DNA of 63,930 nucleotides, filler included. It is 6 parts of 6 records of this genome, joined end to end, with 100 filler letters (N's around TTAATTAATTAA, not from the genome) between each part and the next. Parts side by side here need not be neighbours in the genome. Positions count along the whole stretch, not along the records: positions 25,674 to 46,199 come from SRR31147125_37582; 5 more parts are not named here. One strand, written 5' to 3'. Of the stretch, positions 30,792 through 53,442 are shown in pieces. A model generated the notes under the pieces. The model was not told where the DNA came from, searched no databases, and saw only the letters and a program-made list of their open reading frames with translations. Within the stretch, counting starts at the first letter, position 1. Every line of letters begins with the position of its first letter. The translations under genes were made by a program, and so were the position numbers.

Positions 30792-31529
30792 CTACAGGGG
30801 CTGGAGGGTGACGATACACTTCAGCCCCGCCGGCATTTTCCTGCCCGGATTGGGCAGCTCCAATCGAACGCCGAAGGTGCCGCTGGCTGCATCGATCACC
30901 TTGTCGACCATCGTCACCTGAGCAGCAAACGTGCCGCCCACCGGCTCCTCAAGCTTAACCTGCCCCATCTGGCCTTCCTCGATCGCACCGTAATACGCCA
31001 CGGGAACCACCAGCTCCACCGTCAGCGGATCGATGCGCGCCACCGTCAGAAACGGCTCCTCCCCCACATATTCTCCCGGCGAACCCATCCGTTCTACCAC
31101 GATGCCGTCAATTGTCGAACGGATCGTTCTCAGTTTCAACCGCTCCTCGGCCTCAGCGAGTTCCAGCTTCGCCAGCTGGATCTCGGTCTGGGTTTCATCC
31201 TTGTGATGAACCGACATCAACTGCTTCTGGTAGAGTCGCTGGTTGCGCTCCAGTTTTCGCTCGTTGAATTCGACCCGCGCCCGGGCCAGATCCACCGCGG
31301 CCAGCTCAACCCCTGATTTGAGCTGCGCCAGAACCTGGCCTTTTTTCACCTGGTATCCGCGATCAACCATCACCTTTTCCAGTATTCCCGGGACATGACT
31401 GCTGAAGTCCACGAGGTCCCGGGGTTCCACCAGGCCCTCAAACGGCGGCAATTCATCCGCCAACACCCCGGTCGGAGCCAGAATCAGAATACAGAAAACC
31501 GCACACAGGGCACTGAGCCAATAGTTCAT
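30792..31529 (-). CDS. Periplasmic adaptor / membrane fusion protein (RND-MFP type)
   Basis: Signal peptide; lipoyl halves (VPGILEKVMVDRGYQVKKGQVLA / IRSTIDGIVVER); coiled coil; IDAASGTFGVRLELPN. Confidence 0.88.
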   Translation of the reverse strand: MNYWLSALCAVFCILILAPTGVLADELPPFEGLVEPRDLVDFSSHVPGILEKVMVDRGYQVKKGQVLAQLKSGVELAAVDLARARVEFNERKLERNQRLYQKQLMSVHHKDETQTEIQLAKLELAEAEERLKLRTIRSTIDGIVVERMGSPGEYVGEEPFLTVARIDPLTVELVVPVAYYGAIEEGQMGQVKLEEPVGGTFAAQVTMVDKVIDAASGTFGVRLELPNPGRKMPAGLKCIVTLQPL

Positions 31530-31547
31530 AGAAATCTCCTCTCTCTC

Positions 31548-33548
31548 TTATTCGAGTCTGCCGGAAAACGAAAGGAGGCTGCTCTGCGACTGATCCTGGC
31601 GGAACAACTCCCTTCTAACCCGTGCATGGTAACGCTCAACTCGTTTCTGGATGGTGTTCATCAGCAGCCGGGTCAGCACCGGACCGATCAGTGGAATTTT
31701 GATCCCCGCAGCCCTGATCATTCGGGCCACCCATTGGTCTGACCTGCCTTCAAACAGGTAATCTTCCAGCGACAGAATTGCCTCGTGGCTTCCGGGATCT
31801 CCCTGCCGACCGCAGCGGCCGGCAAGCTGACGGTCGATCCTGGCCGCTTCATGACGCTCCGTTGCGATTACATGCAGTCCCCCGAGTTTCCTGACTTCAT
31901 CGGATAACACGATATCGGTTCCCCGGCCGGCCATATTGGTCGCAATGGTTATCGCACCACGTGCTCCCGCCCGGGCGACTATTTCCGCCTCCTCCCTGTC
32001 CTGCCGCGCATTGAGGATATTACATGATAACCCCTCCGCAGACGCCAGAGCGGCGAGTTCCTCCGAGGCTGCTACGGTTCGGGTGCCGACCAGAACAGGA
32101 CGGCCTGACCGGTTCATCGTGTGCAAACGGGCAATAACCGCCTGCCACTTCGCCTGCCGGTTACCGTATATCCGGTCTGTCAGCCTGCGCCGCTTGAGCG
32201 GTCGATGTGTCGGTACACGGATAGTCGCCATATTGTAGACCACCGAGATCTCTGAGGCAACCTCCCGAGCGGTTCCGGTCATGCCCGAAAGGTGAAGGTA
32301 GCGGCGAAAGAAGCGCTGGTAGCTGATCTTCGCCAGGGTCTCACGTTTCTGCGTCAGTTCGCACCCCTCCTTGACCTCAATAAGCTGATGCAGACCCTGC
32401 TCCCACGATCGATCCGCCATGACCCTGCCGGTAAACTCATCGATAATCACCACCTTTCCGTCACACACCAGGTACTGTTCGTCGGCGCGGTAGAAGTTAA
32501 GGGCAACCAGCGCTTTCGCAACCGTCGACTCCCTCCGCACCAGACCATTCCATAACGGTCCCATCTCCTCGGAACGAGTCTCCAGACTTTTTTTACCGAC
32601 CTCCGTCAGCCGCATACTCCTCCTGGACCTGTCGAGCTGATAATCCGTTCCCTCGGTAAGCTCCTCTGCAAGTTCGAGCGCCTCGACAAAGAACTGCCGC
32701 TCCTCATCACCGCCCAGCGCCCCGGAGATAATCAACGGTGTTCGTGCTTCGTCGATCAGGATGGAATCTGCCTCGTCAACGATTGCAAAATGAAGCCCCC
32801 GAAGCATCATCTGCCTGCTGGTCCGCCTTCCGGAGTGCAGGTATTCAGCCTGCATCAGCAGTTGATTGTCGCGCTCACCCTGGGTCAGCCGGTCCCGTAG
32901 ATAGTCAAACGCGATTTCTTTGTTGGTTACATACGTGATATCACACAGGTATTGCTGTCTTTTTTCCAGGGGCACCAGTCCGTGGACATTGCACCCCACA
33001 GTCAAACCAAGCTTTTCGTAGAGCGGCCGCATGTTTTCGGCATCACGGGAAGTCAGGTAATCGTTGACGCTGATCACATGGACCGGAATTCCTGCCAACG
33101 CGGCTGCCGCTGCGGCAAGTGTCGCTGTCAGCGTCTTCCCCTCGCCGGTCTCCATCTCGGCGACCCCTCCCCTGAGCAGTATCAGCCCACCGAGAAGCTG
33201 GGAGGGATGGTGCCTCAGCCCCAGAACCCGGCCGCTGAGCTCTCTGACCAGCGCAAAACAGTCAATAACCGATGCACGCCTCACTCCCTGCAAGCGAAGG
33301 GTCTTCCGCAGACGAGAGGCCTCCTCCGTTAACTGGCCATCATCGAATGCACGGTAACGGCTTTCGAGCCGCTCAATCGCTTTCACCGTCCGCTGCAGAC
33401 CGAGGCCCCCAGCGCATGCGGCTTTGAATCTGGTACCGGCCCCTGCTAGCCAATTCTCGACGCGACCGCCGACACGATCAGCCCGTTCAGGTCTGAGATC
33501 GTGGCTGGCCGGAGCCATACGTCCGTTTATAAACGTGTTCGCACCCAT
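31548..33548 (-). CDS. Secondary SecA-like (SecA_DEAD) ATPase, C-terminally shortened (666 aa)
   Basis: AEMETGEGKT, VNDYLTSRD, FDYLRD, DEADSILIDEARTPLIIS, IIDEFTGR, GMTGTA, ATNMAGRGTDI, RIDRQLAGRCGRQGDPG. Confidence 0.93.
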   Translation of the reverse strand: MGANTFINGRMAPASHDLRPERADRVGGRVENWLAGAGTRFKAACAGGLGLQRTVKAIERLESRYRAFDDGQLTEEASRLRKTLRLQGVRRASVIDCFALVRELSGRVLGLRHHPSQLLGGLILLRGGVAEMETGEGKTLTATLAAAAAALAGIPVHVISVNDYLTSRDAENMRPLYEKLGLTVGCNVHGLVPLEKRQQYLCDITYVTNKEIAFDYLRDRLTQGERDNQLLMQAEYLHSGRRTSRQMMLRGLHFAIVDEADSILIDEARTPLIISGALGGDEERQFFVEALELAEELTEGTDYQLDRSRRSMRLTEVGKKSLETRSEEMGPLWNGLVRRESTVAKALVALNFYRADEQYLVCDGKVVIIDEFTGRVMADRSWEQGLHQLIEVKEGCELTQKRETLAKISYQRFFRRYLHLSGMTGTAREVASEISVVYNMATIRVPTHRPLKRRRLTDRIYGNRQAKWQAVIARLHTMNRSGRPVLVGTRTVAASEELAALASAEGLSCNILNARQDREEAEIVARAGARGAITIATNMAGRGTDIVLSDEVRKLGGLHVIATERHEAARIDRQLAGRCGRQGDPGSHEAILSLEDYLFEGRSDQWVARMIRAAGIKIPLIGPVLTRLLMNTIQKRVERYHARVRRELFRQDQSQSSLLSFSGRLE

Positions 33549-33552
33549 TTTT

Positions 33553-35695
33553 CTATACTGAAAATCGACTCAGCAACAACCTTCTCAACGTACGGTACCA
33601 GCGCAGCGGCAGTGGTTCCCGGCTGTGTTCAAAGCGCACATACACCCGTTCCCCCACCCTGGCTGGAATCGGTTCATCCGGTCGTACCTCGAACTGAAAA
33701 ACCCGCTCGAGCACACGTGGATACCCTGGTTCCCGCGGATCAAGCACATACCTGCCGCCCCCTTCCATGCTTAACGCGAGGCTCGGCAACTCGTTGCTGG
33801 CCGCCGGTATCTCCCGCAGGATTGCAGCCGGTACAACCCGGTCAATCTCACCGCTCAGTCGTATCGAAACCGCTCTGGTATCGCCCCGTACTCTGTCAAC
33901 TCGCGTCTGTGGAACCACAACCCTGACCTGCATGGTTTCCTGCTTCAGTACATACCCGATCGTATCCCCGCGGTGGAAATACCTGCCTGTCAGATCATCC
34001 TGATCTGGCAGAACAAACACCCCGTCTTCAGGGCTCATCACCAGTAGTTCCTGTTCGCGCTGCTGTGCATCGGCAATCTCCGCCTCCACCCGACTCAACT
34101 CTTCTTTCAGCAGGAGCGAGTCGGTCCGGTCGGTAGTCAGGCTCACATTATAGCGGGCCAGATACTCCTGTTTCTGCGACTTCAGAAACCGGACCCGAGT
34201 CATCAACTCCGGTGCTTCCAGTCGTATGAGGCCGTCACCGACACGTACCTGCCGGTTATCTCCCGTGATTATTTCAGAAACAAACCCATCGGTACCCGGA
34301 TGAATCCGTGCTTCCTCCGGAGCCCAGACAACGCCCTCGCAAACGGTCTGGTAGCGGATGGGAACCATAAAGAGGGCCGCCAGGATCAGACCGATTGGTA
34401 CGAGAACGGTGAGAATGATGCGACCTCTCTTTTTTTCATTTCTCTATCGTTGATGAGGAACCTCATAGTCTTGTTGAGTGGCATGATCAGAAGCGTCCCC
34501 CCGACCCACAGAGCAAAGATGATGCCGATGAAAAAAAACTTGGTGGCGACAAACAGGATTATCCTGAAGGAAATAAAGATCCGATAGCAGAAAGAGGCAA
34601 CCCCGTAAAAGCACAGCCAGCATGCTTCCCGTATCGTGCCGGCAGGGAGCTGAGCCCCTCGACTCCCAGGTAGTAGCGCTGCATGAGATAACCAAGATAT
34701 CGATTCGCTCGCTGACCGAGATTGGGTATTTCAAGAAAATCTGCAAGGATATAATACGCATCGAATCGCAACAACGGATTACCGTTGAAGAGAAGCGTCG
34801 ATATGCCGGCAATCAGCATCGTGTTGAATGCAGCCGCCCGCACCACTCCGGCTTCGACATTGAGCCAGACGATCAGAGCCAGGGCTGCAATGAATACCTC
34901 GACCAGAATGCCCGATGCGGCAACGGCCATTCTCTTTGTTTTCTGCTGAAATGCAAGAGACGATGACGCATCGAGATAGGGGATGGGCATGAAGACCAGC
35001 AGCATGATGCCCATCTCATGTACCTCACCGCCCCATTTTTTCACCGTGTAGGCATGGGCGAACTCATGAAACGTCTTGAGAACCGGATAAATCAGGCTCA
35101 TCAGCAGGAGGTTTTCCGTTCTCAATATCTGGTCACTCACCGAGTTTGTCAGATCCGTCCAGTGCACGATAGCCAGTCCCAACGCGGTCGCAACAACCGC
35201 GAGCCATACCGCAAAAGCGGTTCTGCCGATAAACGGAGCGATATAGCGTATGGTAGCCGCCAGAAAACGGTCAGGATCGAGCAATGGTATGCGCAGAAAC
35301 ACCGGTGATCGCACCGATGTAAGCAGTCGCTGACGACGCCCTTTTTCCTGACGGTGCTGAAGTTCTGAAAAGTTGGGCAGAACGGAACTCTGCAGCAAAT
35401 CCGATACGGAAAGCTTGGCGAGTAGCCCTATCACTTCGTCCTGGGTCGGCATATGAACATCAAGTCGTCCGCACACCGTCTTCCATATCTGATCGAGGCT
35501 TCGCTTCCCGTCCATCAGACCAATGATCTGAAACGCCTCGGGAGAAAAACGGTGGTGCCGTCCGGTGAACCGGTCCTGGATCACGAACCAGTCTTCACCC
35601 CGATAGGTATGACGGGAAATCTTCACATGGCTGCGAAGCCGCGGTTTCAGCGAAGCAACCCTGTACCAGGACTGAGAGAAGAGAGACTCGCTCAT
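33553..35695 (-). CDS. Site-2 (M50) zinc metalloprotease fused to a HlyD-like adaptor domain, with a PqqD-like N-terminus; two homopolymer frameshifts (~34645, ~34433)
   Basis: HEFAH and NGNPLLRFDAY motifs, several TMs. Manual joining gives ...IREACWLCFYGVASF...MKKKRGRIILTV...MVPIRYQ followed by the lipoyl/coiled-coil module. Confidence 0.82.
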
Positions 35696-35713
35696 CGCCC
35701 ACCCGACATCACG

Positions 35714-37549
35714 TTACGGCATCCATTTCCACATCATAATCCTGCCCCATTCCACCAGTTCCCGGCTCCAGATGGAGATCAGGCGACGCCGGTCCACATA
35801 TATTTTTCCTATCCCCTCCATACCGGGTCGAAGGCTGTCATCCATCTGCAACAGGGCTGCCTCGACCCTGAAATAGTTTCGCCCCTCTTCAGCGATCGTC
35901 AACGGTGTAATGCTCTCGACAACAAACGGATAAGCCTGGCCCGGAAGAGACGAGAGAACCAGCATTCCTTCCTGATCCCGTTTCACATCGGCGATACGTC
36001 GCTCATCAACCTCCAGGATGACTCGATACCTGTCGAGCGGAGTTATCTCGAAAAGAACTTCACCCTGCTTCACTGCACTGCCAAGCCGCTGGCTGAGATC
36101 GCCGCTCACCAGAAGCCCGGCGAAAGGTGCCGTCATCAGTGTTCGTGCCAACCTCGTTTCGACCAGGTCGATCTCCGCCTGCAACTGATCGAGCCTGGCC
36201 TTGACGATACCGGCCTGTGCACGGTCGTGCGTGGCAACCGCCTCCTGATACTGACGCTCCATCTGCCGTTTCCTGCTTGTCTTGGCAAGCAGTTCCAACC
36301 GCAGGTTTCGACCGTCAAGTGCGCAGAGGACATCACCTTCTTCCACCACGTCCCCGGCCCGCACCACTGCCTCATCGATATAGCCGTCAAAGGGAACCAC
36401 GATCGCTCTTCTGACAGCCCCTTCCAGGCTGGTTTCAGCAGTCAGGCGGTACTCCCCTTCTGCAAGGATGAAAAAACAGATGAGTGCAACGGCAGACACT
36501 GCAAAGAGTTTGAGTCCAAGATGGGACGCACCGAACAGTTTCTGCAGGAGCTCTTTACAGGACAACAGGACTTTGACAGCAATTGGACGATCGTTCTGGT
36601 ATTTGCTCTCCAGCGCGGGTCCGGCGAGTCCTGCAACCACCTTGATAAACTCGACGTCGTCCTCCGAAAATGGTTTGTCAGCGGACCGCTCGCAGGTCAC
36701 CGCCCCATAGACCCCGTCAGCGTTGTACAGCGGTACCGTGGCAACTGAGGCCATGGACTGCAACCTTGAGAGTTCTTCGTGCTCCCGGCAGATCAGCATC
36801 GTATCCCCGGTCTCGGGGTAAACGATTTCGGTGCGCTGAACCAGCGCTTCATCCATGACCTGCTCTATCGCCCGGGTCAGGTTCATTTTCTTCCCGACCT
36901 CGGCACTGTGTGACACCGCTTTCAGTTTGACATACCGGCTACGCACAAACCCCAGACTTACCCGCTCGCAATTGAGTGCCCCGGCAGTTTTGGTGGTAAA
37001 CAGCATCGCCGCACCCGCGAACTGCTGCTCGCCGAGAGTAGCGGCAAGCAGGTCAACGCCGCTCTTGAGCCGGCTCAGCTGGATGCCGTCAGCTTCATTA
37101 CGCTTTCGACGAACAAGCAACTCCAGCCAGGCGGTACCCCACTGCAGTCGTTCCATGGCCGCCCGTAATTCCGCCTCCGACCCCGCAGCGATCTCCAGTG
37201 CGACAATACCGGTTAATTCATCATCAATGAGCAGAGGATATGCAATACCGTAATTGCCGGCATCCTCAAGTTCCACGAGCAGCCCGCAGCGCTCTTCAAC
37301 CGCACGCTCAACCAGGGCGGTTAGACGGGCTGGGTCAATCGACCCTTCAGGCCAGCCGGCAAGCGGCCGGTATTCTCCGGAACCGGCGTTTACGATCACC
37401 AGCCCCTGGACGACGCCATCGATCAACCCACTCTGCAGCCCCAGCCACCCCCGGTAATACTCTTCATCGTTTCGGGAAGAGGCAAAAGTGGTCCACAGTC
37501 CGGGTTCGTGATCCCGCACATCTTCAGGAGGCTGTGCTTCGATACTCAT
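35714..37549 (-). CDS. GAF-domain + TM + HlyD-like periplasmic adaptor fusion
   Basis: GAF-like segments (LNCERVSLG...SVATVPL...GAVTCER...FSEDD), one TM, then VVPFDGYIDEAVVRAGDVVEEGD and MTAPFAGLLVSGD lipoyl halves. Confidence 0.82.
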   Translation of the reverse strand: MSIEAQPPEDVRDHEPGLWTTFASSRNDEEYYRGWLGLQSGLIDGVVQGLVIVNAGSGEYRPLAGWPEGSIDPARLTALVERAVEERCGLLVELEDAGNYGIAYPLLIDDELTGIVALEIAAGSEAELRAAMERLQWGTAWLELLVRRKRNEADGIQLSRLKSGVDLLAATLGEQQFAGAAMLFTTKTAGALNCERVSLGFVRSRYVKLKAVSHSAEVGKKMNLTRAIEQVMDEALVQRTEIVYPETGDTMLICREHEELSRLQSMASVATVPLYNADGVYGAVTCERSADKPFSEDDVEFIKVVAGLAGPALESKYQNDRPIAVKVLLSCKELLQKLFGASHLGLKLFAVSAVALICFFILAEGEYRLTAETSLEGAVRRAIVVPFDGYIDEAVVRAGDVVEEGDVLCALDGRNLRLELLAKTSRKRQMERQYQEAVATHDRAQAGIVKARLDQLQAEIDLVETRLARTLMTAPFAGLLVSGDLSQRLGSAVKQGEVLFEITPLDRYRVILEVDERRIADVKRDQEGMLVLSSLPGQAYPFVVESITPLTIAEEGRNYFRVEAALLQMDDSLRPGMEGIGKIYVDRRRLISIWSRELVEWGRIMMWKWMP

Positions 37550-37583
37550 GTTCCGATCCCGATCAATCGTTCGTCATCAACTG

Positions 37584-37624
37584 AAAAAAAAGCCGGCATG
37601 ATTTCGGAAAATCACACCGGCTTT
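37584..37624 (-). terminator. Rho-independent terminator after DUF3467
   Basis: Minus strand AAGCCGGTGTGATTT-TCCG-AAATCATGCCGGCTT followed by a T tract. Confidence 0.8.
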
Positions 37625-37644
37625 CATACGACCTGCAATAACGG

Positions 37645-37980
37645 TTATTCCGTCTTCTGTTCTGGCAGATTCAGCTCCAGAACCCCAAAAAGTTTCTCAT
37701 ATTCCGCGATCGTGTTGCTCAACAGGACCGACAAACGTTTGGCAGCATAAGGATTCAAAGTCATCCGATCAGACAGATCAACCACCAAGTCCTTCTGCCC
37801 GGCATGCCAGTTCTGATTGGTACCGAAGAGCAGGGTCACTTCCTCACGAGAACTCGTCACGTTACAGACATTTGCATAGGTATTACGCATGTTGCTACCC
37901 TCCCAGCGAATTGTCGTCTGCTGCTGTTCCTGGGTATCCTGGTTGTTCTGTTCTGCCGTTGCCGTTTCCTTCTTGGTCAT
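37645..37980 (-). CDS. DUF3467-family small protein
   Basis: YANVCNVTSSREEVTLLFG...RMTLNPYAAKRL...YEKLFG pattern; CAGGAGAG RBS. Confidence 0.8.
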   Translation of the reverse strand: MTKKETATAEQNNQDTQEQQQTTIRWEGSNMRNTYANVCNVTSSREEVTLLFGTNQNWHAGQKDLVVDLSDRMTLNPYAAKRLSVLLSNTIAEYEKLFGVLELNLPEQKTE

Positions 37981-37995
37981 CTCGTCTCTCCTGAG

Positions 37996-40900
37996 TTAGT
38001 GGGCCTTAGTGATCCTTTCCGTATCCTCTATCCTACCAGTTTCCTTACGATTTACATACCCCTTTTGCACATTGAAATCAACGGTTGTCACCATCGTCTT
38101 CTCGAAGGTATCGACGGCAGTGGCCTGTTTTTTCAGGTCCGATCCATCCCAGCGATACCGGCGTGGTTTGCGTTTCAGGAATTCGCGCAGATCTTCGGGG
38201 TTCAAGTGCTTTTTCCTGCTTCCCGCAACACCTGAAGCAACAGTCCAGCCGGCAAGTCCAGCCGCCATACTGCTCAAATCCGGGGCCTGATACCCATCGT
38301 GTGATCCTGAATCGAGAGAAGATTCGCCATTGGCTGAGCTCCCACCAGGGCGGCCAGAGAGCACTCTGCCAGCAGGTTCACGCTCATCCTGCTGGAGAGA
38401 TGCGTTCGAATCGGGAGCACGTGAGCCTAGCTCATCTTCGGGCACCATCCCTGGCTCTGCATGATATTCTTCATTCGCGACAGTGCCGCCATGGTGTGTC
38501 TGTCTCCCACTGAAAAAGCCGAGATTCAGGCCGAACGGATCATCTGAGCCTGCCAGGATTCCCAGCCTCCAGCCGTACGCGTCATAAGAAGAAGATGATC
38601 CGTCAAATACAACGTGTTTTACCATTTTTAAATCGTTGTACTCCCAGTCATTCCAGAAAGATCCCTCTGCTCGCAGGTAGAACAGACCGGATGCGGGAAC
38701 AACCGCCTTCACTACCGGCGTGGAGGAAACCGGACGGTCGAGAGAGCTGGCTATTATCACCCCGTTTCTCAGTCTGACCCAACCGTTATTTGTAATGATG
38801 AAATCACCCCAGGGATTGACGAAAGTGTCATTGCCGTACCCACCCAGCAGTATATCGAAACCAGGGCCACCATCGAGAATATCGTCTCCCCCGATAAAAT
38901 AGCCGGTGGTTTCCAGGAAGACCGGGTAACCGTCTTCATACCATGCACGGCCATTGTCGCCGAAGATGATATCGTTGCCTTCGTTACCGGAAAGATCGTC
39001 GCTTCCCGCACCACCAAATATCAGATCACCGCCGCTTCCGCCCCTGACCTGATCGTCACCGCCGACTACCAGAGGTGTCGTTTCAACCAGACGCACCATG
39101 CCGTTCTGGTAAAGAATTCGACCGTTGTCAGCAACGATCATGTCAGCGCCGGCGTCGCCGTCCAGTGTGTCGCTCCCGAAACCGCCAAAGATCGTATCAT
39201 CTCCCTCTCCTCCGGAAGCCACGTCGTTACCGCCAACTGTCGGAGCAATCGTATTAACCAGGCCCAATCTTCCGTTGACAAAGGAAACCCGGCCATTGTC
39301 GCCGAACACGAAATCGTTTCCGCCATCACCTTGAAGTTTGTCATCACCGGTACCACCAAAGATCAGGTCGTCGCCGTCCCCGCCATAGACCTTGTCCACT
39401 CCACCCATTGTCGGAAACATCGATTCTGCCGTTGTCACAATGCCGTCCAGGTAGGATACCTGGCCATAGTCCCCAAAAATGATATCAGGGCCGCCATTGC
39501 CGGTAATCCGGTCCGAACCGTTCCCGCCGAATATCACATCCCCCGGCCGGTACCGGTTATCCGGTCGTTGCCGTCTGATCCGGTATCGAAGCTGCTCAGT
39601 GCTATCGGCTGGATAAGGCCGGCGGATACATTGTATGCGGCAGTTCCTCCGTCACCGAACATCGTGACCCCCTGCCCCACCGGGATGCATCGATAACATC
39701 CGACCCGCCCTCACCGAGCAGAACTGCCTCGCCGTCCGAACCTGTGCCGGTGCTGTCGAGGGTCAACGTGTCATTACCATCCCCCATCTTGATCAACGTG
39801 AGTGCTGCAGGCGATGTTCCCGTTACCGAAACGGTATCGTCGCCGCTGCCGAAGAACGCTTTGAACCTGCCGCTGAACGGATCATCCACGCTGTACGTGA
39901 TAACTCCCGAACCATTCAGGTTGTCAAGCCCTGAAACAGACGTCTCGTCTATCACCACGGAACTCCGCCCCGCCGGGTTGCCGCGGTCGCTCACGATCAA
40001 TGTGTTCATCCCCGCGCCGGCATCGAGAAAGATGTCTCCGTGTATGTTGTCCAACGTTCCCCCGATCGATGGCGCCTCTGAGGAAATGATGATCATATCA
40101 TCCGCGCCGCCTGCTGTGATACGGTAGTCCACCGTTTCAGAAGTTCCCTGGATATTGAAGGTGTTTGCTCCTGAAGCAAGATCGATGATAATGTTTTCGA
40201 GGGTGTTGTACTCGATCCCTTCAGCCATACCGAGGCCGGTTATCATGCTCTCGGTAAGCGTACCTTCGTTGTTGTCGTCGTCACCACTGTCATCGACGCT
40301 CAGCGTATCGTACCCGTCGCCGCCGCTGATGTTCAACAAACTCGAAATGGTGTCGACGACGCCTCCCGCGTTGTCCAGCGGGGTCGCCATGCTGCCCAGA
40401 TTGAACCAGTCGTCACCGCCGTTAAGCAGGACATCGGTCTCCATCGCCGGTGACAGGTGACGGAGTGCAACGGTGTCCTCATCATCGCCGGCCGTAACCG
40501 CGAGGCTGCCGGCCCGAATGACGCCCTGCAGGTTGATCACCGTGCCGAATCCCATATCCGCATCGAGATGCTCGGTCGTGATCACAACGGGGCCCGCTGC
40601 CTCAACGAGTGTCTGCTCTTCCAGCGTAAGATTGTCACCGGCCAGCAGTGTTACTCTGTTGCCTGAGGTGCCAATCGTGCCACCTTCAATCAGCGTAAGA
40701 TTGTCACCCACGGCAGAAGTATCCGGGACAAGCAGCAGGATATCGCCGCCTGCCGAGACCGCATCGCTGACAACGAGCTCACCCGCTGTTTCGTGGATGT
40801 GAATCCCGCTCTCCGCGTCGGCCCGGAACCAACCGCTTCCAGACACCGACGTGTCGATGTCCATCAGGTTTGCGGCCGATCCGATCGACCCGTCTCGCGA

Positions 40901-43900
40901 TTGCAGTGACACAGCCGTCGCCGAGATAGTGGTCTGATCGTCGTCATTCGCATCCACGATCGATCCCTGGGCCAGCAGTGACACATCGCCGGCTCCTGAA
41001 ACGACGGTGTTGATATTGAGATCGCCATTGGTCTCATCGATAAATATATCGTCTGTCGCAGCAGCGGTCAGCAGGTTCGAGTCGATCTCCAGGGAATCAT
41101 CGCTGCTGCCGATCCCCGCCGCCAGCAGGTTCAGGGAATCACCCACAACATCCGCTCCCGCATCCCCTTCACCGTCGAGCATGGAGCCCGGTGCGACCAG
41201 GTGCACGTCACCTGTTTGTGAGTAAATGGTGCCGATCGCCAGATCTCCTGCTGTCTCGGTCAGCCACACATCACCTGAAGCATAGGCAGATACCGGTCCG
41301 TCTCCGGAATCCACCAGGATCGGGTCACCGCTCAGGCCGACGATACCGAGGCCGGATCCGAGCGTGATGGTGTCCCCGACAATCATATGATCATGACCAT
41401 CGACATGAGCCGCCACGAGATCCCCGCCTACCTGGATGTCAACGTCCCCATCACCAAAATCGATAGCTCCGAGCTCGAGATCGACCTGAGCGCCGGTGAT
41501 TCTCAAATCACCGATATCCGCGCCGCTTTGTTCGATGACATAGCTGCCCCGTACAGCCGTGGACCCGGAACTCGTGTCGTAGAACGGCAACGTGAAGACA
41601 TCACGTGACGATGAGAGCTCAATCGTATTCCAGAACCCCGATGTCGCCAGCACATGCCCGTTCTCCGCCACCGACGCGGCAATAAGATCCGCAGCTTCCC
41701 GTGCTCCCGGCAGACCGTCATCAGAATCGTCATCATCGCTGTTCAGTGCATCGGCAAGCTGCTGCACCGTCGTTTCGCTTCCGGCCGTCGTGTTGAGCGT
41801 TATGGTTATGGTACTGATCCCGTCCGCATCCGGGTCAGAAACTAAGACCTGTGGTCCGGTTCCATTTCCAAGCGCTTCTTTGTGTATCTCTACATGGACT
41901 TCTCCGGCAGAATTCAAGGCCGCGTTGCTGGTCTCGGCAAGCTGGATGGCAGTACCGCTGAGCTTTATTACGTAATAGGATTCTCCATCGGTGAGGTTGG
42001 TAATCTCCCCTCCACCGGTGAGGTGATGATAGATGACCTCATCACCCGTCTCAAAGGTATGGCCTTTCTGGAACCGAAGTACATCGGCCTCGTTGTCGGT
42101 GGCCTCGATACTTATAACCGGGCTGAACGAATGGGCACTGCCGGTAGCCGCTGCCTGATCGAGTGAAACCGTGACCGGAATGGCCGCCATAGCATTATCG
42201 TAACTGTCCGCCAGCATGAAGGTGTCGTCATCCTGAGCGACCACGAAATAGACGCTTCCGCTCGTGATACCGCCGATATCGCTACCGCCGCTTCCGCTGT
42301 TGTACACAACTTTCTGGCCGTGTCCGAATCCATGGTCTGTATAGTGGATCACATCGCCCCAGCCGATCGAATGATCGTCACCGCTCGATTCACCGACATC
42401 GGTGATAATCCCCTGACCACTCGCTGCATTGGCAGAAGAAGATGCCAGGCGAATAATCGTGTCGTCTACGTCGATGACGTAGTACGTCTGCCCGCTTCTG
42501 AGTCCACCGATATCATCTCCTCCACCACTGCTGTAGGTATAGATATCACCGGTAGACAGATTGTGGTTCACACCGAAATCGATGCTCTCACGCGATACCA
42601 AAGTGTGGCTGGAGCCGGAAAGGGCAGACAGGCTGATTGCAGTATCAGATTGTGATTCCTGATAGCTCGAAGCGAGTTGAATCGAATTTCCATCAACACG
42701 AATGACATAGTAGGTATCACCGGCGTTGAGTTCTCCGCCGCTGTTGGACCCCGCGCCGTTGAGATACGTAACCGCTTCCCCATCGCTGAACGTATGGGAG
42801 CTTACCGTGATGGTTGCACCAGAGACGGCGGAATCGCCAAACGACTGGGCCACCTGAGATGGTCCGATTACGGATTGAAGCTCATGTGCTGTTCCACTCG
42901 CATCCTTCGGATCCAGCTTGATCACCGTCGGAGTGACGGCCACGGCCTGCGCGTAGCCTGCCGCAAGACTCAGGTACGTACCATGAATTCCGGCCACGTA
43001 GTAGGTTGTGCCGTCAATGAGACCGCCGACACTGGCGCCGCTTCCGTTTGAATATACAAGCGAATCGCCTCTCTGATACGACGATGCCCCATCAATACGG
43101 ATCCGCTCGAGCGTTTCAAACACGTGATCGCCAGACGCCGGGTTCGGGTTGATATTGATTGCATCTCCGTCTGGATCGTTACCGAGCTTGATATCGTTCC
43201 CGTCTATCTGGACAACATAATAGAACGAGCCGTCCGTCAGACCGGAGATGCTGGAACCACCGCTCTGGTTCTCATAGCGTACCACATCGTTTACCGAAAG
43301 ACCGGATGTATCGTCGATCTCCAGCCGTTCTCCAGAGATCAGGTAACTCTGATCCGATGCATCTGTATCCTCCGTCACATCGATGATCTGGCCGGAGGAG
43401 TTTTCGAGTTGGATGGTGTTCGCATCGATGTAATTCACCCAGTAGGTACCACTTGCGACCCCACCGTAATCCGAACCGGCAGTGAAAATGACCCGCTCAC
43501 CATCACTGAAGCCATGTGAGCTGATTGATAATCGGTTGGTATCCTTATTGAACTCAGAGGGTGCCAGTGATTGTTCGGTGCCGGATAATCCGATATCTTT
43601 CTCCACACCGCCCAACTCAGTCTGTGGGTCGAAACTGTCTGCCTCGGGTGACGGATCGAATTCGAGATTCAACGCACCGCTCGGATCAAAAACAGTTTGC
43701 CCCTGGAGATAGTAATAATTGCCGCTCAGGCCGGTCGCGTCGATATCGATCGCCCCACCCAGGTCCAGGGCGGACAGTTCCAAATCAGCGCGATTTCCGG
43801 TGGAATCGAGCAATTCACTGTCGAGGAAGTTCACCTGGACCTGCCCGTTTCCGCTGATATCGTGAATAATACCGTAGAACGGTTCCGATTCGATCTCATC

Positions 43901-46199
43901 CCGATCTATTCCCTTGATCTGGGAGTAAATATTTCCTGCAGCCTGCAAGGTCAGCTCCGGATTGAGCGTCCCGAGGATTTCTGCAAACTCGGGCGGAAGC
44001 GGGAAATCCTGGATCTGGGCCAGTTCGATGCCGAGCTGCTCGTCCGCAGTTCCGATATTGCCCTGCTGAGCCTCTACACTCAGGACTCTCGAGCGCACAC
44101 CGTCACCCGCCGCATGTATAGAACCAAGCCCCTCGTTGACAATCGATGTAATCCCGAAGGTCGCATCAATATACCCATCGAGATAGATTGACGAATCACC
44201 GTAATTATCGATACTCACGCTGTTTTCGGCAGGCCCGCTATGCATGGTATAGTCGAAGGTCTCCATATTGGGCTTGGAGACGTTGAATTCGAGCGGTGGT
44301 GCTGACGAGGCGCTGATTATCGTGTCGATATCCGAGACATGCAGATCGAGATCGGAGTAATTGCTGATATCCACCGTCATGGTCGTATCGAATTTGAAAC
44401 TCGCATCCCCTACCAGGGTCCCGAAAATCGAATCGAACAGCACCCTGCCCTGATCCGTGTTCTCGACATCATCGACAACCACCGTGTTGTCCGCTTCATT
44501 GACGGTTGCGGTGATCCCGTTCTGGGTCAGCGTGTTGTCTTCATGGACGATGAGCTCGGCGGGTCCACCGAGAATGGTCACATCCGAGTTGAAATCGATA
44601 TAGCTATCGCGGGATTCAGCCCCGTAGGTCTTCCCCTGGCTGTCGCTGTTAAGGACCTTTTTCACCAATCCCATGATCGGTTCGCACACTTCTTTTCCAT
44701 CCCACAGACCGAAGGTAATGATCTTCCAGACCGTTTTGCAGGCATAGTCAACTACTTCGGTCACCCACTCGACCACTGTCTCGGCATCGGTGTCGGCGAT
44801 GGTTTCCCACCCGCCGGCAACCGAAGTCGCGTTCCGCGAACTGGCCATGACCAGCAGGTCTCTGGTGGTCATCGTGGTATCTGTCTTGGTGGTTATGTCT
44901 GAGTCCAGATCGAGATCGTTATGCGCATTGGAATAGAGACTCCCCGTGAACCCGAATTCGATAGCGGTGTCGGCAATTGAAATGGACTTGACGTTTTTCT
45001 GGAGTGATTCAAGAACGATCTTGTCGGGTGCTTCGATATGGGATCCCTCGCCGAGCTCCACATAGGTCCGTGCGCCCACATCCACATCCGACGTCGCGCG
45101 GGTGATCCCGTTTGCCTGGAAGGTTTTCGAATAGGTCTCAGCCTTTGCAAGAAGGGCCTTATCCTGTGCCCGCAGGATGACCTGTTGACCTTCCACCGTG
45201 GAGTTGTCACCTATCATGACCTGGGTGTCGCTGTCGCTTATTTCTGCAGCGGCTTTGACCCTGACATTTGCGTCTGCCGCCGCAGCGTTCTGGGTCGAAT
45301 CGGCCCATATGTACATGGAGTTCAAGGCCTCGATCGAAAGGTCCGACCCGGCGTTGAGAACGTTTGTGTCGCCAATCAACACCTCGGTATCAAAATCATC
45401 TACCGTAACCGTTACGTCCACGCCGTTAGAGGTCACAAAGCCTCCGGAACCGCCAGTCCCCTTCACAGATACAGGGCTGCTTTCTGATGTACCGATAGTG
45501 TTTTCAGCGGTAATCAGGACGTCGCCCTCCGGAGCCTCCAGTGTTACATAATCCCCTGTCTTGATCAGTGCTCCACCATCAATGGTCACCGAACCGGTAA
45601 CCTTGGCGCCAACCGCAATACCTCCGGCATATGCACTGCTATTAGCCGATACGGTCGTATGAGAAGTGGCGTCTACGCTCAGATCTCCGGTCAGCGCAGT
45701 CAACGTTGCATTCGAACCGATCTCAGTGGTTACGGAAGAATCGATTTCGACATCCACATCGACTCCGCTGCCCGTGAGGACGCCAATGCCGAGAGTCTTC
45801 GCATTCGCCGTCGCCGATTTATCCGCATCTGCCAAAATAGCAATACTTCCCGCGGTAATGACGGCTCCGTCACCCACCCACGCATCGGTTTTTCCGGTGT
45901 TCGTGGCCTCACTGGTCATATCCGAGATTTCAACAACTCCACCTGAGGTGCCGGATGCATGAGCAGTTACCGTAGAGTCGGAGTCGGCATCGACCGTCAC
46001 CGCTCCGGTTCCTTCCTGTATCACGACACCGTCGCCGATAAAGGCCTCGTTGTTGCGCGTAATCGAGGCAGACGCCTTTGCACCGCTGCCCGTCAGCAGA
46101 CCTGCGGAACCGGTCAGAACGTCCGCATCTGCGTAGCTTGTATCGCTCGAACCGATGGCCAATGAGCCCGCCTTTACCACGGTCTCATCGCCGATGTAG
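37996..46199 (-). CDS. Giant repetitive Ca-binding (RTX-like) surface/secreted protein, >2700 aa, 5' end off the contig; two G-run frameshifts (~39675, ~39542)
   Basis: ORFs 39602-46180 and 37996-39537 are joined by an intermediate frame (GQGVTMFGDGGTAAY...GNDRITG). Many GGxGxDxL and DxIFGDNG repeats; beta-helix-like G/S/D/T-rich segments. Confidence 0.88.
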
Positions 46200-46299
46200 N
46201 NNNNNNNNNNNNNNNNNNNNNNNNNNNNNNNNNNNNNNNNNNNTTAATTAATTAANNNNNNNNNNNNNNNNNNNNNNNNNNNNNNNNNNNNNNNNNNNN
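46200..46299. other. Artificial contig spacer
   Basis: N44-TTAATTAATTAA-N44. Confidence 0.99.
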
Positions 46300-46372: not shown

Positions 46373-46439
46373 TTGATACATTTTGGCATTATGTTGCTAC
46401 GTATGAGCAAGCGGTTTTTATGGGTTGCCTTTATTTTTG
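46373..46439 (+). promoter_or_regulatory. Direct-repeat operator plus Bacteroidota -7 promoter box upstream of the sulfatase operon
   Basis: TTGATACA (46373) and TTGCTACG (46394), 21 bp apart; TATTTTTG (TAnnTTTG) at 46432. Confidence 0.55.
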
Positions 46440-46472
46440 TTCAATTATTCGATAACTGAAAATGATGAACCA

Positions 46473-47804
46473 ATGAAAACCACAAGTATTATTTTTTTGA
46501 TGCTCCTTGTTTGTTTCAGTGTAATGGGGCAAAATTCTGAGAAACCTAATATCGTACTTTTAATGGCCGACGACCTTGGCTATGGGGACTTAAGTTATAA
46601 CAGTTGTCCCGATATTAAAACTCCAAATATTGATAAACTCACTAAACAAGGCGTTAGGTTTACCAATTACTACTCTTCCGGGCCGGTTTGTACACCAACC
46701 CGAACAGCTTTAATGACCGGCCGTTACCAGGCGCGTTTTAAAGATTTGGAGGGGGCACTTTACATGGACGTAACCAAAGTTGGGCTGCCCAAAGGTGAAG
46801 AAACCATTGCCCACGCTCTTCAACGAAATGGATATGCAACCGGAATGGTGGGAAAATGGCACATTGGCGAAGAAGAACCTTTGCAACCTCAGCACTTTGG
46901 TTTCGACGACTTTTTTGGTTTCTTGGGCGGAAATATAGATTATTTCAGGCATTGCCGGAAAAATCAGATTCCCGACTTGTGGCACAATGGAGAGCCGATT
47001 ACCGATGGTATGTACATGACCGATTTAATTACGAAAAAATCCAACGAATTTATTCAGAAACAGGCAAAAACGAAAATTCCATTCTTTTTATATGTAGCCT
47101 ACAACGCTCCACACTGGCCGTACCAGGGCCCCGACGACGAACCTTGCAAAGCCGATGGCTCGAATTGGATGATTGGAACCCGCGACCACATGGTTAAAAT
47201 GATTGAACGGCTTGATTATAGTGTTGGGCAAATTCAGAAAGAACTGAAAAAACAGGGGCTTGATAAAAACACCTTAATCATTTTCACCAGCGACAACGGT
47301 GGTGATAAACTGGCACGAAACTATCCGTTTTCGGGGAGAAAAGGCATGTTACGCGATGGTGGAATTCATGTGCCGTTAATTATGGTTTGGCCCAGAAAAA
47401 TTGAGCCGAATTCAGTTAATAGCACCCTGGCAATTACAATGGATATAAGTAAAACGGTTTTGGAAGAAACTCACTCCGAGTTTAAAACTGTTTCTGATGG
47501 TGTGTCATTACTAAATGAAGCTGCACTAAACAACGAGCGTTTTTTAGTTTGGCGAAACGAAGGAAAAAAAGGACGTGCTGTTCGAGCTGGTAATTGGAAA
47601 TACCTGCAAGAAAAGAAAGGTAGAGAAGTGGTGGAATATCTTTTTAATGTTGGAGAAGATGTTTCGGAATCAAATGATATTAAGGACGAGAATCCTAAAA
47701 TCTTTAAAAAACTAAAAAAGGAATTTGAGAAGTGGGAAAAAGAAATGCCTTATAAACAGACACTTTTTGGCTTCGCCCTAAAGAATTTTTACGCCGATAA
47801 ATAA
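46473..47804 (+). CDS. Sulfatase (S1, Cys-type)
   Basis: KPNIVLLMADDLGYGD, CTPTR, GKWHIG, APHWP, SDNGG; signal peptide. Confidence 0.95.
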   Translation: MKTTSIIFLMLLVCFSVMGQNSEKPNIVLLMADDLGYGDLSYNSCPDIKTPNIDKLTKQGVRFTNYYSSGPVCTPTRTALMTGRYQARFKDLEGALYMDVTKVGLPKGEETIAHALQRNGYATGMVGKWHIGEEEPLQPQHFGFDDFFGFLGGNIDYFRHCRKNQIPDLWHNGEPITDGMYMTDLITKKSNEFIQKQAKTKIPFFLYVAYNAPHWPYQGPDDEPCKADGSNWMIGTRDHMVKMIERLDYSVGQIQKELKKQGLDKNTLIIFTSDNGGDKLARNYPFSGRKGMLRDGGIHVPLIMVWPRKIEPNSVNSTLAITMDISKTVLEETHSEFKTVSDGVSLLNEAALNNERFLVWRNEGKKGRAVRAGNWKYLQEKKGREVVEYLFNVGEDVSESNDIKDENPKIFKKLKKEFEKWEKEMPYKQTLFGFALKNFYADK

Positions 47805-47897
47805 TACCAATTAAAAATATTTTATAACGATTTCAGCTTTCTGTTTACAAAACATTCAGAAAATGCTGAAGTACAGGGAATCTATACATCAAATTTT

Positions 47898-49904: not shown

Positions 49905-49966
49905 CTTTCCAGTCTACTCATCTTGTATCTAAACATCTTGTGTCTAATAGTCTAAAAAAATAAAAA

Positions 49967-51694
49967 ATGAAACTAAAAATATTAATTATCGCCTGCGTGG
50001 TGCTTTCCAACGTTGTGAGCATGAGTTTGCAGGCAAAAAACACCAAAAAGAAACCCAACATTGTTTTTATTTTAACCGACGACCAGGGTTACGGCGACTT
50101 TAGCTGTATGGGAAATCCGTATGTTAAAACTCCGGCCATGGACAAATTAAAAGAAGATGGTGTGTTTTTCAATAATTTCCATGTGAGTGCGGTGTGCGCC
50201 CCAACCCGTTCGTCGTTAATGACCGGGCGTTTTAATTACCGTACCGGCGTTTCGGGGGTAAATAAAAGCAAGGTAAACATGTATGCCGACGAGAATACCA
50301 TTGCCGAATACCTGAAAGAAGCGGGCTACAACACCGGGCTTTTCGGAAAGTGGCATTTGGGCTACAATTACCCCATGCGCGCCATCGACCAGGGATTTGA
50401 TGTTGGCTACATGTGGGACGAAATGCAGTATTTTCGCACCGACCCGGTAATGGAAGAGAACGGTACAAATAAAACCTACGAGGGCCGTTTTCTTACCGAT
50501 GTGGTTTTCGAAAAAGCCATTGATTATGTGGAAGAACAGTCGCAGAAAGAGGAACCGTTTTTTGCTTACATCGCCACATTTTTACCGCATACGCACCACG
50601 ATGGTTCGCAGGTGCCTGAAGAGTACATGCGCCGTTTCGATAAATACGACGAATTGAGCTGGCACACTCGCCAATGTTACGCCATGATTGAAAAGGTTGA
50701 TGAACAAATGGCATTGCTAATGAAACGCATTGAAGAACTTGGTGAAGAAGAAAATACCATCTTTATTTTTGCCACCGATAATGGCCCTGCCGAATGTTAC
50801 CCGGGGCAAAACCGCGATTGCCAGTTGCGTTATCGTTGCGGACTGCGCGGAATGAAAGGTTCGCCGTACGAAGGCGGAATTAAGGTGCCATTATTTATTA
50901 AGTGGAAAAACCATTTTAATGCCAATCTTGAAATCGACAAATACACAGCTCATGTCGATATTTTACCTACTGTGTTGGATATTCTGGACATTCCGATGAA
51001 AAAGGATAAAGTGATTGACGGCCGTAGTTTGTACCCGTTCATTCAGGAAAAAGAAAATGTAGCCTGGGAGAATTCGTATTTCTATCACCTGTACATTCCG
51101 AATATGGAGATTAAAGAACACAAATGGCTGAAGGGAACAATGGTAAACGGTGATTATAAACTGGTTGAAGGGAAAGAACTTTTCAACATCACCAACGATC
51201 CTTATGAGAAAAATAATCTGGCCACCGAAATGCATGACAAGTTTCAGCAAATGCGCGACGAATACGAAGCTCGTTTAGATGAATACTGGGCAGAACGAAA
51301 TGGTGTACGACAGCCAAATATTTTAGGTTCCGAAAAACAACCTTTGGTAAACATGTTCTATTTCGAAATTGTACCGGAAGAAAAAGGCTGGCCCGTAAAA
51401 GTTGAAAAGAACGGCCCGTATAAACTTTCAATCTACGATATTCAGCATAACGACATTAAACCGGGAGCAAAGTTTGTGTTGGAAGCAAAAAACAAGGTTT
51501 GGAAAATTGATATTGACAAAGCAAAAAAAGACCAGTTTTTATTGGGAATTGAATTGCCTAAAGGAGAATATTACCTGCGCTTTTATATTGAAGGCGACAA
51601 TTTTCCAAAGAAATTCTCGACCTGGACACCTGAGCAGGGACGCTACCACCGCGAAGAATACGGGCACCGCCGTGTAACGCTTGAATTGCTATAA
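49967..51694 (+). CDS. Arylsulfatase-type sulfatase (S1)
   Basis: KPNIVFILTDDQGYGD, CAPTR, GKWHLG, TDNGP. Confidence 0.93.
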   Translation: MKLKILIIACVVLSNVVSMSLQAKNTKKKPNIVFILTDDQGYGDFSCMGNPYVKTPAMDKLKEDGVFFNNFHVSAVCAPTRSSLMTGRFNYRTGVSGVNKSKVNMYADENTIAEYLKEAGYNTGLFGKWHLGYNYPMRAIDQGFDVGYMWDEMQYFRTDPVMEENGTNKTYEGRFLTDVVFEKAIDYVEEQSQKEEPFFAYIATFLPHTHHDGSQVPEEYMRRFDKYDELSWHTRQCYAMIEKVDEQMALLMKRIEELGEEENTIFIFATDNGPAECYPGQNRDCQLRYRCGLRGMKGSPYEGGIKVPLFIKWKNHFNANLEIDKYTAHVDILPTVLDILDIPMKKDKVIDGRSLYPFIQEKENVAWENSYFYHLYIPNMEIKEHKWLKGTMVNGDYKLVEGKELFNITNDPYEKNNLATEMHDKFQQMRDEYEARLDEYWAERNGVRQPNILGSEKQPLVNMFYFEIVPEEKGWPVKVEKNGPYKLSIYDIQHNDIKPGAKFVLEAKNKVWKIDIDKAKKDQFLLGIELPKGEYYLRFYIEGDNFPKKFSTWTPEQGRYHREEYGHRRVTLELL

Positions 51695-51696
51695 AT

Positions 51697-53430: not shown

Positions 53431-53442
53431 AACCAATTAATT

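Follow-up and report, generated by a model that had tools for sequence, protein, structure and literature searches.

The window analysed in this study was a stretch of DNA of 63,930 nt, which was made up of six contigs. The contigs were joined at five places by identical artificial 100-nt linkers (N44-TTAATTAATTAA-N44), located at 5519-5618, 13120-13219, 25574-25673, 46200-46299, and 57081-57180. We focused on a locus on the contig at 25674-46199, of which the linkers at 25574-25673 and 46200-46299 marked the near and far ends. This contig was 20.5 kb long with a GC content of 0.556, and the remaining contigs had GC contents of 0.32-0.50. Six genes, all on the minus strand, were found at 30792-46199 and took up most of the contig. 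They encoded a small periplasmic adaptor of the membrane fusion protein (MFP) type, a SecA-like ATPase, an M50 protease fused to a HlyD adaptor (M50-HlyD), a GAF-TM-HlyD adaptor, a small DUF3467 protein, and the C-terminal part of a giant protein with repeats-in-toxin (RTX) motifs. The gaps between the genes were 18, 4, 18, 95, and 15 nt, and the MFP gene was convergent with hom at a distance of 13 nt. Genes for ATP-binding cassette (ABC) transporters, resistance-nodulation-division (RND) pumps, or outer-membrane efflux proteins (OEP) were not found on this contig using Pfam and phmmer. These results were in agreement with an initial annotation of the same DNA, which had described six co-oriented and closely spaced genes, three HlyD/MFP modules with no ABC or RND genes, a giant protein of more than 2700 aa, and a locus end convergent with hom. 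The observation was confirmed. Its interpretation as a type-I-like secretion system driven by a SecA paralog was partly supported, as described below.

The window consensus contained frame breaks in two of the six genes. The M50-HlyD gene was split over three frames, with one base absent at 34644/34645 and one at 34429/34430. The giant gene was split over two open reading frames (ORFs), with single bases absent at 39667/39668 and at 39539/39540. For run X1, a Logan contig spanned 33500-39700 with 0 substitutions and four single-base insertions, which were located behind 34429, 34644, 39539, and 39667, exactly at the frame breaks. Run X1 was probably the source sample, and its contig represented an independent assembly (depth about 10), not an independent sample. 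Because the inserted bases sat at the frame breaks, the breaks were regarded as consensus errors in the window and not as decay. A pseudogene reading was ruled out by the presence of the four missing bases in the Logan contig. Frame arithmetic together with the stop-free middle pieces gave one M50-HlyD ORF of ~714 aa and one open giant fragment of ~2,734 aa. No RNA data set was listed for 33500-39700.

The SecA-like ATPase (31548-33548, minus strand, 666 aa) matched SecA_DEAD (1.1e-102), SecA_PP_bind (2.5e-24), and P-loop_SecA (2.1e-53) in Pfam, and the SecA_SW (scaffold/wing) domain was not found in it by Pfam. It was aligned to residues 24-601 of the solved B. subtilis SecA chains (802-841 aa) with about 437 bits. 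In the textbook domain map of SecA, an end at residue ~601 falls inside the first long scaffold helix. Since the protein ended in this helix, it was without the helical wing, the two-helix finger, and the C-terminal tail. In SecA, these parts engage SecYEG and SecB, and the finger enters SecY. Against NCBIfam, the protein gave 620 bits for SecA (cut-off 814) and 554 bits for SecA2 (cut-off 1085), and it stayed below all equivalog cut-offs. The Walker A (GEGKT), DEAD box, and arginine motifs were invariant in 31 sequences. One canonical SecA with SecA_SW was present in each of five related carrier genomes that were searched, so that the SecA-like protein is an extra paralog. It shared the two nucleotide-binding domains and the preprotein cross-linking domain with SecA and SecA2, and, like SecA2 of Gram-positives and mycobacteria, it was in the relatives an extra copy beside canonical SecA. 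In contrast to the SecA2 systems, there were no adjacent SecY2 or accessory Sec genes, and HlyD-type adaptors adjoined it instead.

The M50-HlyD protein (33553-35695, minus strand, ~714 aa) consisted of an N-terminal head, an intramembrane M50 metalloprotease (Pfam Peptidase_M50), and a HlyD part (HlyD_D23). When an intact homolog from a related locus (L001) was used in tblastn, colinear pieces of the window gene were found in three frames with 77%, 55%, and 55% identity. The zinc-binding motif HExxH (HEFAH) was read in translation at 35054-35068 on the minus strand. In the ungapped L001 homolog, HExxH was located at residue 210 and NxxPxxxxD at residue 304, and about six hydrophobic segments were found at residues 152-445. 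In the initial annotation, the M50 fusion had been placed in the inner-membrane part of the system. However, the protein was more than a membrane part, as it carried intact HExxH/NxxPxxxxD motifs and a further domain in its head. This N-terminal cytoplasmic domain (~aa 1-100; 35396-35695, minus strand) was modelled with AF2 using the first 150 residues and a 40-sequence alignment. The model had a pLDDT of 77.9 and showed three strands and three helices at aa 24-97. In Foldseek, it matched the leader-bound lasso B1 proteins 5v1u/5v1v (TMt 0.72) and 6jx3 (0.75), as well as PqqD 5sxy (0.69), the PbtF RRE 8t19, and cyanobactin heterocyclases; the top match was GdmN 7vzq (E 3.2e-4). On this model, the head has the fold of a recognition element (RRE) of ribosomally synthesized and post-translationally modified peptides (RiPPs), which is also that of PqqD. 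This fold holds the leader peptide in solved complexes.

The L001 homolog was also similar to the daptide intramembrane metalloprotease NF041824 (8.9e-45, 153 bits, cut-off 300). The RiPP leader peptidases (NF041824 and the YydH/LiaK family) and the M50-HlyD protein thus shared an RRE/PqqD-like head and a polytopic HExxH membrane protease. In contrast to these peptidases, the protease of the module was fused to a periplasmic HlyD part, was below the family cut-off, and had no precursor or modifying enzymes nearby. RiPP modifying enzymes (radical SAM, YcaO, lanthionine synthetase and the like) or a small precursor were not found on the locus contig. The likely substrate would be a protein of thousands of residues.

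The locus encoded two other adaptors. The GAF-TM-HlyD protein (35714-37549, minus strand, 611 aa) matched GAF_3 (5.4e-10), HlyD_3 (1.1e-17), and HlyD_D23 (3.4e-12) in Pfam. It had a single hydrophobic segment at aa 344-362, which placed the GAF domain in the cytoplasm. The small MFP (30792-31529, minus strand, 245 aa) matched HlyD_D23 (5.5e-21) and HlyD_3 (1.1e-11) in Pfam and passed the cut-off of NCBIfam RND_mfp with 120 bits (cut-off 94.9). A hydrophobic segment at aa 5-23 gave it a signal-like N-terminus. All three HlyD-type modules fell below the type_I_hlyD cut-off.

The DUF3467 protein (37645-37980, minus strand, 111 aa; Pfam DUF3467 1.5e-20) showed 14 invariant columns in an alignment of 31 sequences. 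Its AF2 model (pLDDT 69) had four strands and a long helix. No PDB match was found for this model in Foldseek at E <= 0.001, and in the VIA wide search, Z did not exceed 2.7 (TIP60) and COMMD-like rows were weak. A SecB-like fold, suggested by the strand/helix topology, was dropped because it was unsupported by the fold searches. A complex prediction for the SecA-like and DUF3467 proteins gave a score of 0.00 without controls or supplied alignments and had no bearing either way. The DUF3467 gene was tandemly duplicated in three related loci (L033 4920-5830, L038 4439-5717, and L071 4699-5629).

The giant gene was located at 37996-46199 on the minus strand. With the two inserted bases, its frame was open from 46198 to the stop at 37996, and no stop was present in any piece. 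Since the frame was open to the contig end, the N-terminus of the protein was missing in the window. The fragment of ~2,734 aa matched the Pfam family HemolysinCabind in four stretches, with 4.1e-27 for the last 513 aa. The RTX nonapeptide block with 9/10 GGxGxD motifs was located at fragment residues 2225-2453 of ~2734, corresponding to 38840-39530 on the minus strand by approximate conversion. About 280 non-repeat C-terminal residues followed the last repeat (37996-38840). This tail contained a serine/glycine-rich stretch, a short hydrophobic run below the transmembrane threshold, and then a basic cluster, and it had no family match. It was aligned with the tail of the giant of locus L007 at 28% identity. 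The window fragment was 30-41% identical to the giants beside four delta-type relatives, whose open frames were 5045 (cut), 7822, 8563, and 19211 aa long. As these giants were far longer, the window fragment is probably the tail of a much longer protein.

Related loci were collected using the SecA-like protein as query with one genome per species. This search gave 192 relatives, and 80 loci were kept. The closest relatives were a Thermodesulfobacteriota metagenome-assembled genome (MAG) with 67% identity and Desulfuromonas/Desulfuromonadales MAGs with 60-61% identity. Stop-to-stop ORFs of at least 80 aa were searched with phmmer in all 80 loci and the window contig. Pfam was applied to a set of 95 neighbouring ORFs, where L018 and L020 were omitted as near-copies of L017 and L019, and to 89 more ORFs of at least 380 aa. 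The 92 ORFs of 200-379 aa in L032-L080 and all ORFs above 1000 aa were searched by phmmer only, for ABC, OEP, SapC, and DUF4347. The greedy ORF caller used in the survey mislabels some high-GC loci.

The order of the core genes was conserved. GAF-HlyD, M50, HlyD, and SecA-like proteins were all present in 69 of the 80 loci, and the other 11 were short or cut contigs. The order and strand of GAF-HlyD, M50-HlyD, and SecA-like genes, with GAF-HlyD first, were the same in 69/69 loci. A homolog of the small adaptor was found downstream of the SecA-like gene in 72/80 loci. A same-strand ORF of at least 1000 aa within 4 kb flanked 31 of the 35 loci that had at least 4.5 kb on both sides. When only the upstream side was considered, 47 loci had 4.5 kb or more of sequence there; a same-strand giant ORF (at least 1000 aa, at most 4 kb away) was present in 31 of them, and 24 of these 31 upstream giants had at least three GGxGxD motifs. 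DUF3467 was less constant, with the gene present in 25 of 58 loci that had at least 700 nt upstream of GAF-HlyD.

We also looked for an ABC energiser in the related loci. A full-length HlyB-type ABC gene was found within 10 kb in only 3/80 loci (L047, L051, and L073) using phmmer on all ORFs. All three were Burkholderiales, and the ABC gene belonged to a separate OEP-ABC(-HlyD) set located 5-7 kb downstream. Pfam gave no ABC transporter among the 95 neighbouring ORFs and two (L051 and L073) among the 89 more. Weak phmmer ABC matches in six other loci were probably importer-type ATPases, judging from the solute-binding/permease genes beside some of them. With 3/80, the homologous loci were without a consistent HlyB-type ABC gene. 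A consistent presence had been named in the initial annotation as a refutation of the proposal, and the proposal was thus not refuted by this test. TolC-family genes were found within 10 kb in 14/80 loci, and SapC genes were found in 8/80, sometimes within the operon.

In other settings, SapC occurs in S-layer type I export loci. In L028 (6944-7813), L072 (8857-9732), and L076 (9001-9783), the SapC-family gene was located inside the operon between the adaptor and SecA-like genes, and it was likewise inside the operon at about 9100-9930 in L061, L063, and L080. A SapC gene was also directly upstream of the Kistimonas giant (L194). A separate arrangement was observed in the Methylococcales-type loci (L015, L031, L035, L041, L043, L044, and L065), where a giant of ~2800 aa or more (cut) with DUF4347 was located downstream of the small adaptor. 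In L015 and L031, two tandem HDOD-domain genes were found by Pfam directly upstream of GAF-HlyD. The other loci of this type had two like-sized ORFs upstream, unscanned by Pfam, except that L043 and L044 had one; L044 and L065 were partly cut. No DUF3467 gene was found in the Methylococcales-type loci.

The N-terminus of the giants was investigated in the relatives. Of the first three giant starts fetched, two matched NF012209 (LEPR-XLL) above the cut-off at residues ~31-52, and a TolC-family gene (TIGR01844 above the cut-off, L081 and L083) was directly upstream of both. LEPR-XLL matches were then found in 26/32 carrier genomes and in 0/14 control genomes. According to the coordinates, LEPR-XLL was at the start of the giant flanking the module in 20/32 carriers; contig identity was checked by length for 16 of these 20, and the other four rested on coordinates alone. 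In three further genomes, the match was among tandem giants at a distance of up to ~30 kb, in two it was on another contig, and in one it was marginal. All 18 fetched N-termini, which were chosen for having a LEPR match, had the motif (L/I)E(P/x)R(x)LLSAD at residues 29-88, preceded by a basic stretch. By eye, no hydrophobic Sec-type core was seen in these leaders. TolC was directly upstream of the giant in 5 of the 18 regions. No tolC gene was present on the 20.5-kb contig of the window.

In the genome G002, the order was tolC, a 4437-aa giant with N-terminal LEPR-XLL and a C-terminal RTX block, and then the module. This genome was among the closest relatives (SecA-like 60% identical), and closer ones were on contigs too short to show the giant. 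In an even sample of 81 genomes of the same class, 7 had the RRE-M50 head and 5 had LEPR-XLL. LEPR-XLL always accompanied the head (both in 5 genomes, LEPR-XLL alone in 0). When the two known carriers were removed, LEPR-XLL was found in 3/5 module genomes versus 0/74 others. Second RRE-M50-HlyD copies were present at G002:C8 45158-50560 and G007:C31 11210-16332, and each of these module copies was ~5 kb from its own smaller LEPR-XLL protein (open frames of 1590 and 2808 aa). In L082 (G003:C6 286000-290500), the apparent start of the 8563-aa frame was without LEPR-XLL. A 720-aa ORF with RTX-like repeats ended 20 nt upstream of this frame on the same strand. The L082 giant may be a longer gene with its start further upstream, or the two may be tandem repeat proteins.

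The module itself was already known. Kamneva, Poudel and Ward (2015, PLoS One, PMC4452313) described a secondary SecA_DEAD protein without SecA_SW in a conserved locus. In the main text of that paper, the locus contains Peptidase_M50-like/HlyD, GAF/HlyD, and further HlyD/Biotin_lipoyl proteins with no ABC and with OEP sometimes nearby. SecA_DEAD was proposed there as the ATPase and the M50 protein as the membrane part, it was stated that there was no experimental knowledge, and lateral transfer of the module was inferred (PMC4452313). The window locus has the same four core proteins and no ABC, and the domains of all four agreed with the 2015 description. It is a further copy of this known, uncharacterised module, and it is incomplete here. 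The initial annotation had mentioned SecA_DEAD/T1SS-like neighbourhoods without experimental characterisation, and this was correct. Its claim of mechanistic novelty was not supported, since both the ATPase and the membrane-part ideas were already in PMC4452313. The idea of the SecA paralog as an ATP motor was consistent with the motifs invariant in 31 sequences and with the scarcity of ABC genes, and it had been published in 2015. The main text of PMC4452313 is without the words RTX, hemolysin, and DUF3467. The adjacent giant, the LEPR-XLL leader, the RRE-like head, and DUF3467 were found in the present analysis and not in that main text. The window copy is deltaproteobacterium-like, a group that is not named in the title of the 2015 paper. 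A literature search, with subscription journals outside its scope, yielded the 2015 paper, one paper that cites it and shares its first author, and mentions without relation to the module; it gave no paper linking the module to DUF3467 or LEPR-XLL.

Based on the above results, we considered the locus most likely to encode a dedicated envelope-spanning export and processing machine of the Kamneva type for the adjacent upstream giant, and we gave this sequence-based reading a probability of roughly 0.6. The genes with their domains, motifs, and conserved order were observed here, as were the rarity of ABC genes and the association with LEPR-XLL giants and TolC in position and phyletic distribution; the following way of working is inferred. 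The newly made giant would carry a basic N-terminal leader that ends with LEPRxLLSAD; in the window, this end of the protein lies off the contig. The cytoplasmic RRE-like head of M50-HlyD would bind the leader, and the intramembrane HExxH protease would remove it. The SecA-like ATPase, which retains the DEAD motor and the preprotein clamp, would pass the chain in unfolded form to a complex of M50-HlyD and GAF-HlyD in the inner membrane. In the periplasm, the small MFP and the corresponding parts of M50-HlyD and GAF-HlyD may form a duct to a TolC-family channel, and the C-terminal RTX repeats would fold with calcium outside the cell. The GAF domain might gate or regulate the machine, and DUF3467 would be an accessory protein. 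The LEPR-XLL tag on the giants of the relatives and the RRE-like head suggested that cargo recognition is probably N-terminal and leader-based, and not by a C-terminal type-I signal.

Several points weighed against this machine. The window was without the cargo N-terminus, tolC, and the rest of the genome, so that the leader and the channel were taken from the relatives. SecA is not known to function in the absence of SecYEG. C-terminal RTX repeats are classically a sign of type I substrates that depend on an ABC transporter. With 153 versus 300 bits, the similarity to the daptide protease stayed below the family cut-off. Four of the 35 two-flank loci were without an adjacent same-strand giant, and two of these exceptions (L009 and L041) had a divergent DUF4347 giant. 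Six of the 32 carriers had no LEPR match, including the Methylococcales-type loci with DUF4347 giants and G003; within this type, LEPR-XLL gave no match in the four genomes searched (L031, L035, L041, and L043). In the class sample, 2/7 module carriers gave no LEPR match. ABC exporters were present elsewhere in 5/5 carriers searched, below the HlyB cut-off (about 320-380 bits), and G002 had a true HlyB-family gene on another contig. In these five carriers, which were incomplete MAGs, TIGR01846 (HlyB family) was above the cut-off in 1/5 (the G002 gene) and TIGR01842 (PrtD family) in 0/5, in a search that did not include LssB/LapB-type models. The literature search yielded no experimental study of the module or any of its components.

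The ABC genes elsewhere and the RTX repeats at the end of the cargo would also be expected if the module only assisted a classical type I secretion system (T1SS). A HlyB/LapB-type ABC transporter from another locus would then export the giant, starting at its C-terminus, and the RRE-M50 protein, the GAF sensor, and the SecA-like ATPase would only process, hold, or release its N-terminus. The control of the LapA adhesin by LapG and LapD provides an analogy, and the GAF domain suggests ligand control. The three Burkholderiales loci with a full OEP-ABC(-HlyD) set 5-7 kb downstream and the HlyB-family gene of G002 were in line with such an arrangement. However, 77/80 loci were without a HlyB-type ABC gene within 10 kb, though tolC and the cargo gene were often adjacent. 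The HlyB family was above the cut-off in only one of the five carriers and the PrtD family in none, with the genomes incomplete and other ABC families unsearched. Three adaptor-type periplasmic domains and an ATPase exceed the needs of a processing role. We regarded this explanation as unlikely, with the dedicated export machine remaining the preferred one.

It was less probable still that the locus serves signalling or quality control with no transport. Here the M50 protein would carry out regulated intramembrane proteolysis of the site-2-protease type under the GAF sensor, and the SecA-like protein would serve in the cytoplasm as a chaperone or unfoldase, or direct the giant to ordinary SecYEG. 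The best-known role of M50 proteases is in regulated intramembrane proteolysis, GAF domains are sensors, and the preprotein cross-linking domain was kept in the SecA-like protein. In the 2015 main text, only the GAF gene of M. extorquens is reported as clearly expressed in exponential phase (PMC4452313). However, the three HlyD-type adaptors and the frequent adjacency of tolC pointed to an envelope duct. The 18 leaders were basic with LEPRxLLSAD and by eye had no hydrophobic Sec-type core, and the SecA-like protein did not have those parts of SecA (wing, two-helix finger, C-terminal tail) by which SecYEG and SecB are engaged. No sigma/anti-sigma pair was found on the locus contig, and the phyletic tracking of the giants fitted this explanation less well than it fitted an exporter. 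A RiPP-type maturation and export route, in which the RRE-M50 protein cleaves a small precursor that leaves via the adaptors while the giant is only a frequent neighbour, was very improbable, for although the RRE fold of the head, the similarity of the homolog to daptide and YydH/LiaK leader peptidases, and the small conserved DUF3467 gene in the operon would suit it, there was no modifying enzyme on the contig, DUF3467 was conserved and folded-looking at 100-130 aa with no variable core, the LEPR-XLL giants tracked the module in position and phyletic pattern, and the three adaptor domains and TolC adjacency fitted it less well.

Giant surface or RTX-type proteins are usually attributed to a T1SS with an ABC transporter as its motor. 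The proposed export machine was compared with the T1SS (HlyB-HlyD-TolC and LapB-LapC-LapE). Both had HlyD-type adaptors, a TolC-family channel (in the relatives of the window locus), and an adjacent gene for a very large cargo that carries calcium-binding RTX repeats at its C-terminus; in both, export in one step would be the likely outcome. However, an ABC energiser of the HlyB, PrtD, or LapB type was not found on the locus contig, and the ATPase was SecA-like. The T1SS has one adaptor, whereas the module had three, two of which were fused to cytoplasmic or membrane domains. The tag in the cargo of the relatives was N-terminal, in contrast to the C-terminal signal of the T1SS, and the module had a built-in membrane protease. 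We tentatively suggest that the module might be a distinct and unnamed one-step secretion system of diderms, although we considered this somewhat short of an even chance. In such a system, the LEPRxLLSAD leader of proteins of 2,000-19,000 residues would be read by the RRE, cleaved by M50, and followed by export with a SecA paralog, without SecYEG or ABC, through a duct of three adaptors and TolC.

A related combination was reported for giants of Omnitrophota and Actinobacteria, which embed SecA_DEAD domains (bioRxiv 10.1101/2023.11.21.568195). According to the sections of this preprint that were consulted, they likewise have a SecA motor and preprotein-binding domain without scaffold/wing, tied to giant export. 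In contrast, the SecA-like domain there is within the giant with type II-like systems nearby, and that of the window is a separate 666-aa protein. Another case was found in Chlorobium chlorochromatii, where the giants Cag_663 and Cag_665 have an N-terminal LEPRxLL, are flanked by tolC and sapC, and were found in the partner cell without known transport signals (bioRxiv 10.64898/2026.03.19.712371). The preprint thus offers experimental support for the exit of such giants from the cell. It also notes a separately acquired 'secA' (Cag_1676) and hlyD in this genome. In the portions consulted, it assigns export to type I/sap components and names no SecA-like module. The export of these giants fits an unrecognised exporter.

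If the distinct system existed, it would provide the first example of a SecA-type motor that is coupled with a tripartite TolC duct and of leader-peptide (RRE) logic in protein secretion, and it would be a new route across the Gram-negative envelope. It would also explain the export of LEPR-XLL giants, including the Chlorochromatium symbiosis proteins said in the preprint to lack transport signals. The window added no unique piece to this, as the cargo was truncated by the contig end and the organism was uncultured. The value was in the comparative tests, which turned the neighbourhood note of 2015 into a concrete hypothesis with a leader, an RRE, a protease, and a giant cargo. Cultured carriers in which it is testable include Methylobacterium extorquens AM1 (named in PMC4452313), Ensifer, Kistimonas, and Syntrophorhabdus.

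The surroundings of the locus were also inspected. On the module contig, a gene for outer-membrane phospholipase A1 (PLA1, 1.4e-73) was located at 25674-26591 and truncated by the contig start, and genes for DctP, a thiamine-diphosphate (TPP) enzyme, and hom adjoined it. The TPP enzyme showed 74-78% identity to genes of Deltaproteobacteria/Desulfobacula MAGs, and by this similarity the contig is assigned to a deltaproteobacterium-like organism. In the case of the next contig, the closest match of its GH97 gene was a Prolixibacteraceae gene with 72% identity. The genes outside 25674-46199 come from other organisms. Because contigs of different organisms were joined, gene neighbourhood across a linker carries no meaning, and the flagellar and sulfatase genes on either side are irrelevant to the locus. 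A horizontally acquired island in a 39% GC genome was ruled out, since the GC steps fell on the artificial linkers.

The contig at 13677-25573 (39.5% GC) encoded unusually long flagellar filament proteins (flagellin 967 aa, FlgK 597 aa, and FliD 1101 aa). A second flagellin of at least 700 aa was cut by the contig end, and a sigma factor of the extracytoplasmic function (ECF) type was found among the filament genes. At 46425-56323, a polysaccharide-utilisation-like run consisted of three sulfatases, the GH97 gene, and an alpha-L-fucosidase. The fucosidase was found in two overlapping ORFs (54903-55451 and 55418-56323), which possibly reflected the same kind of single-base consensus gap as in the locus.

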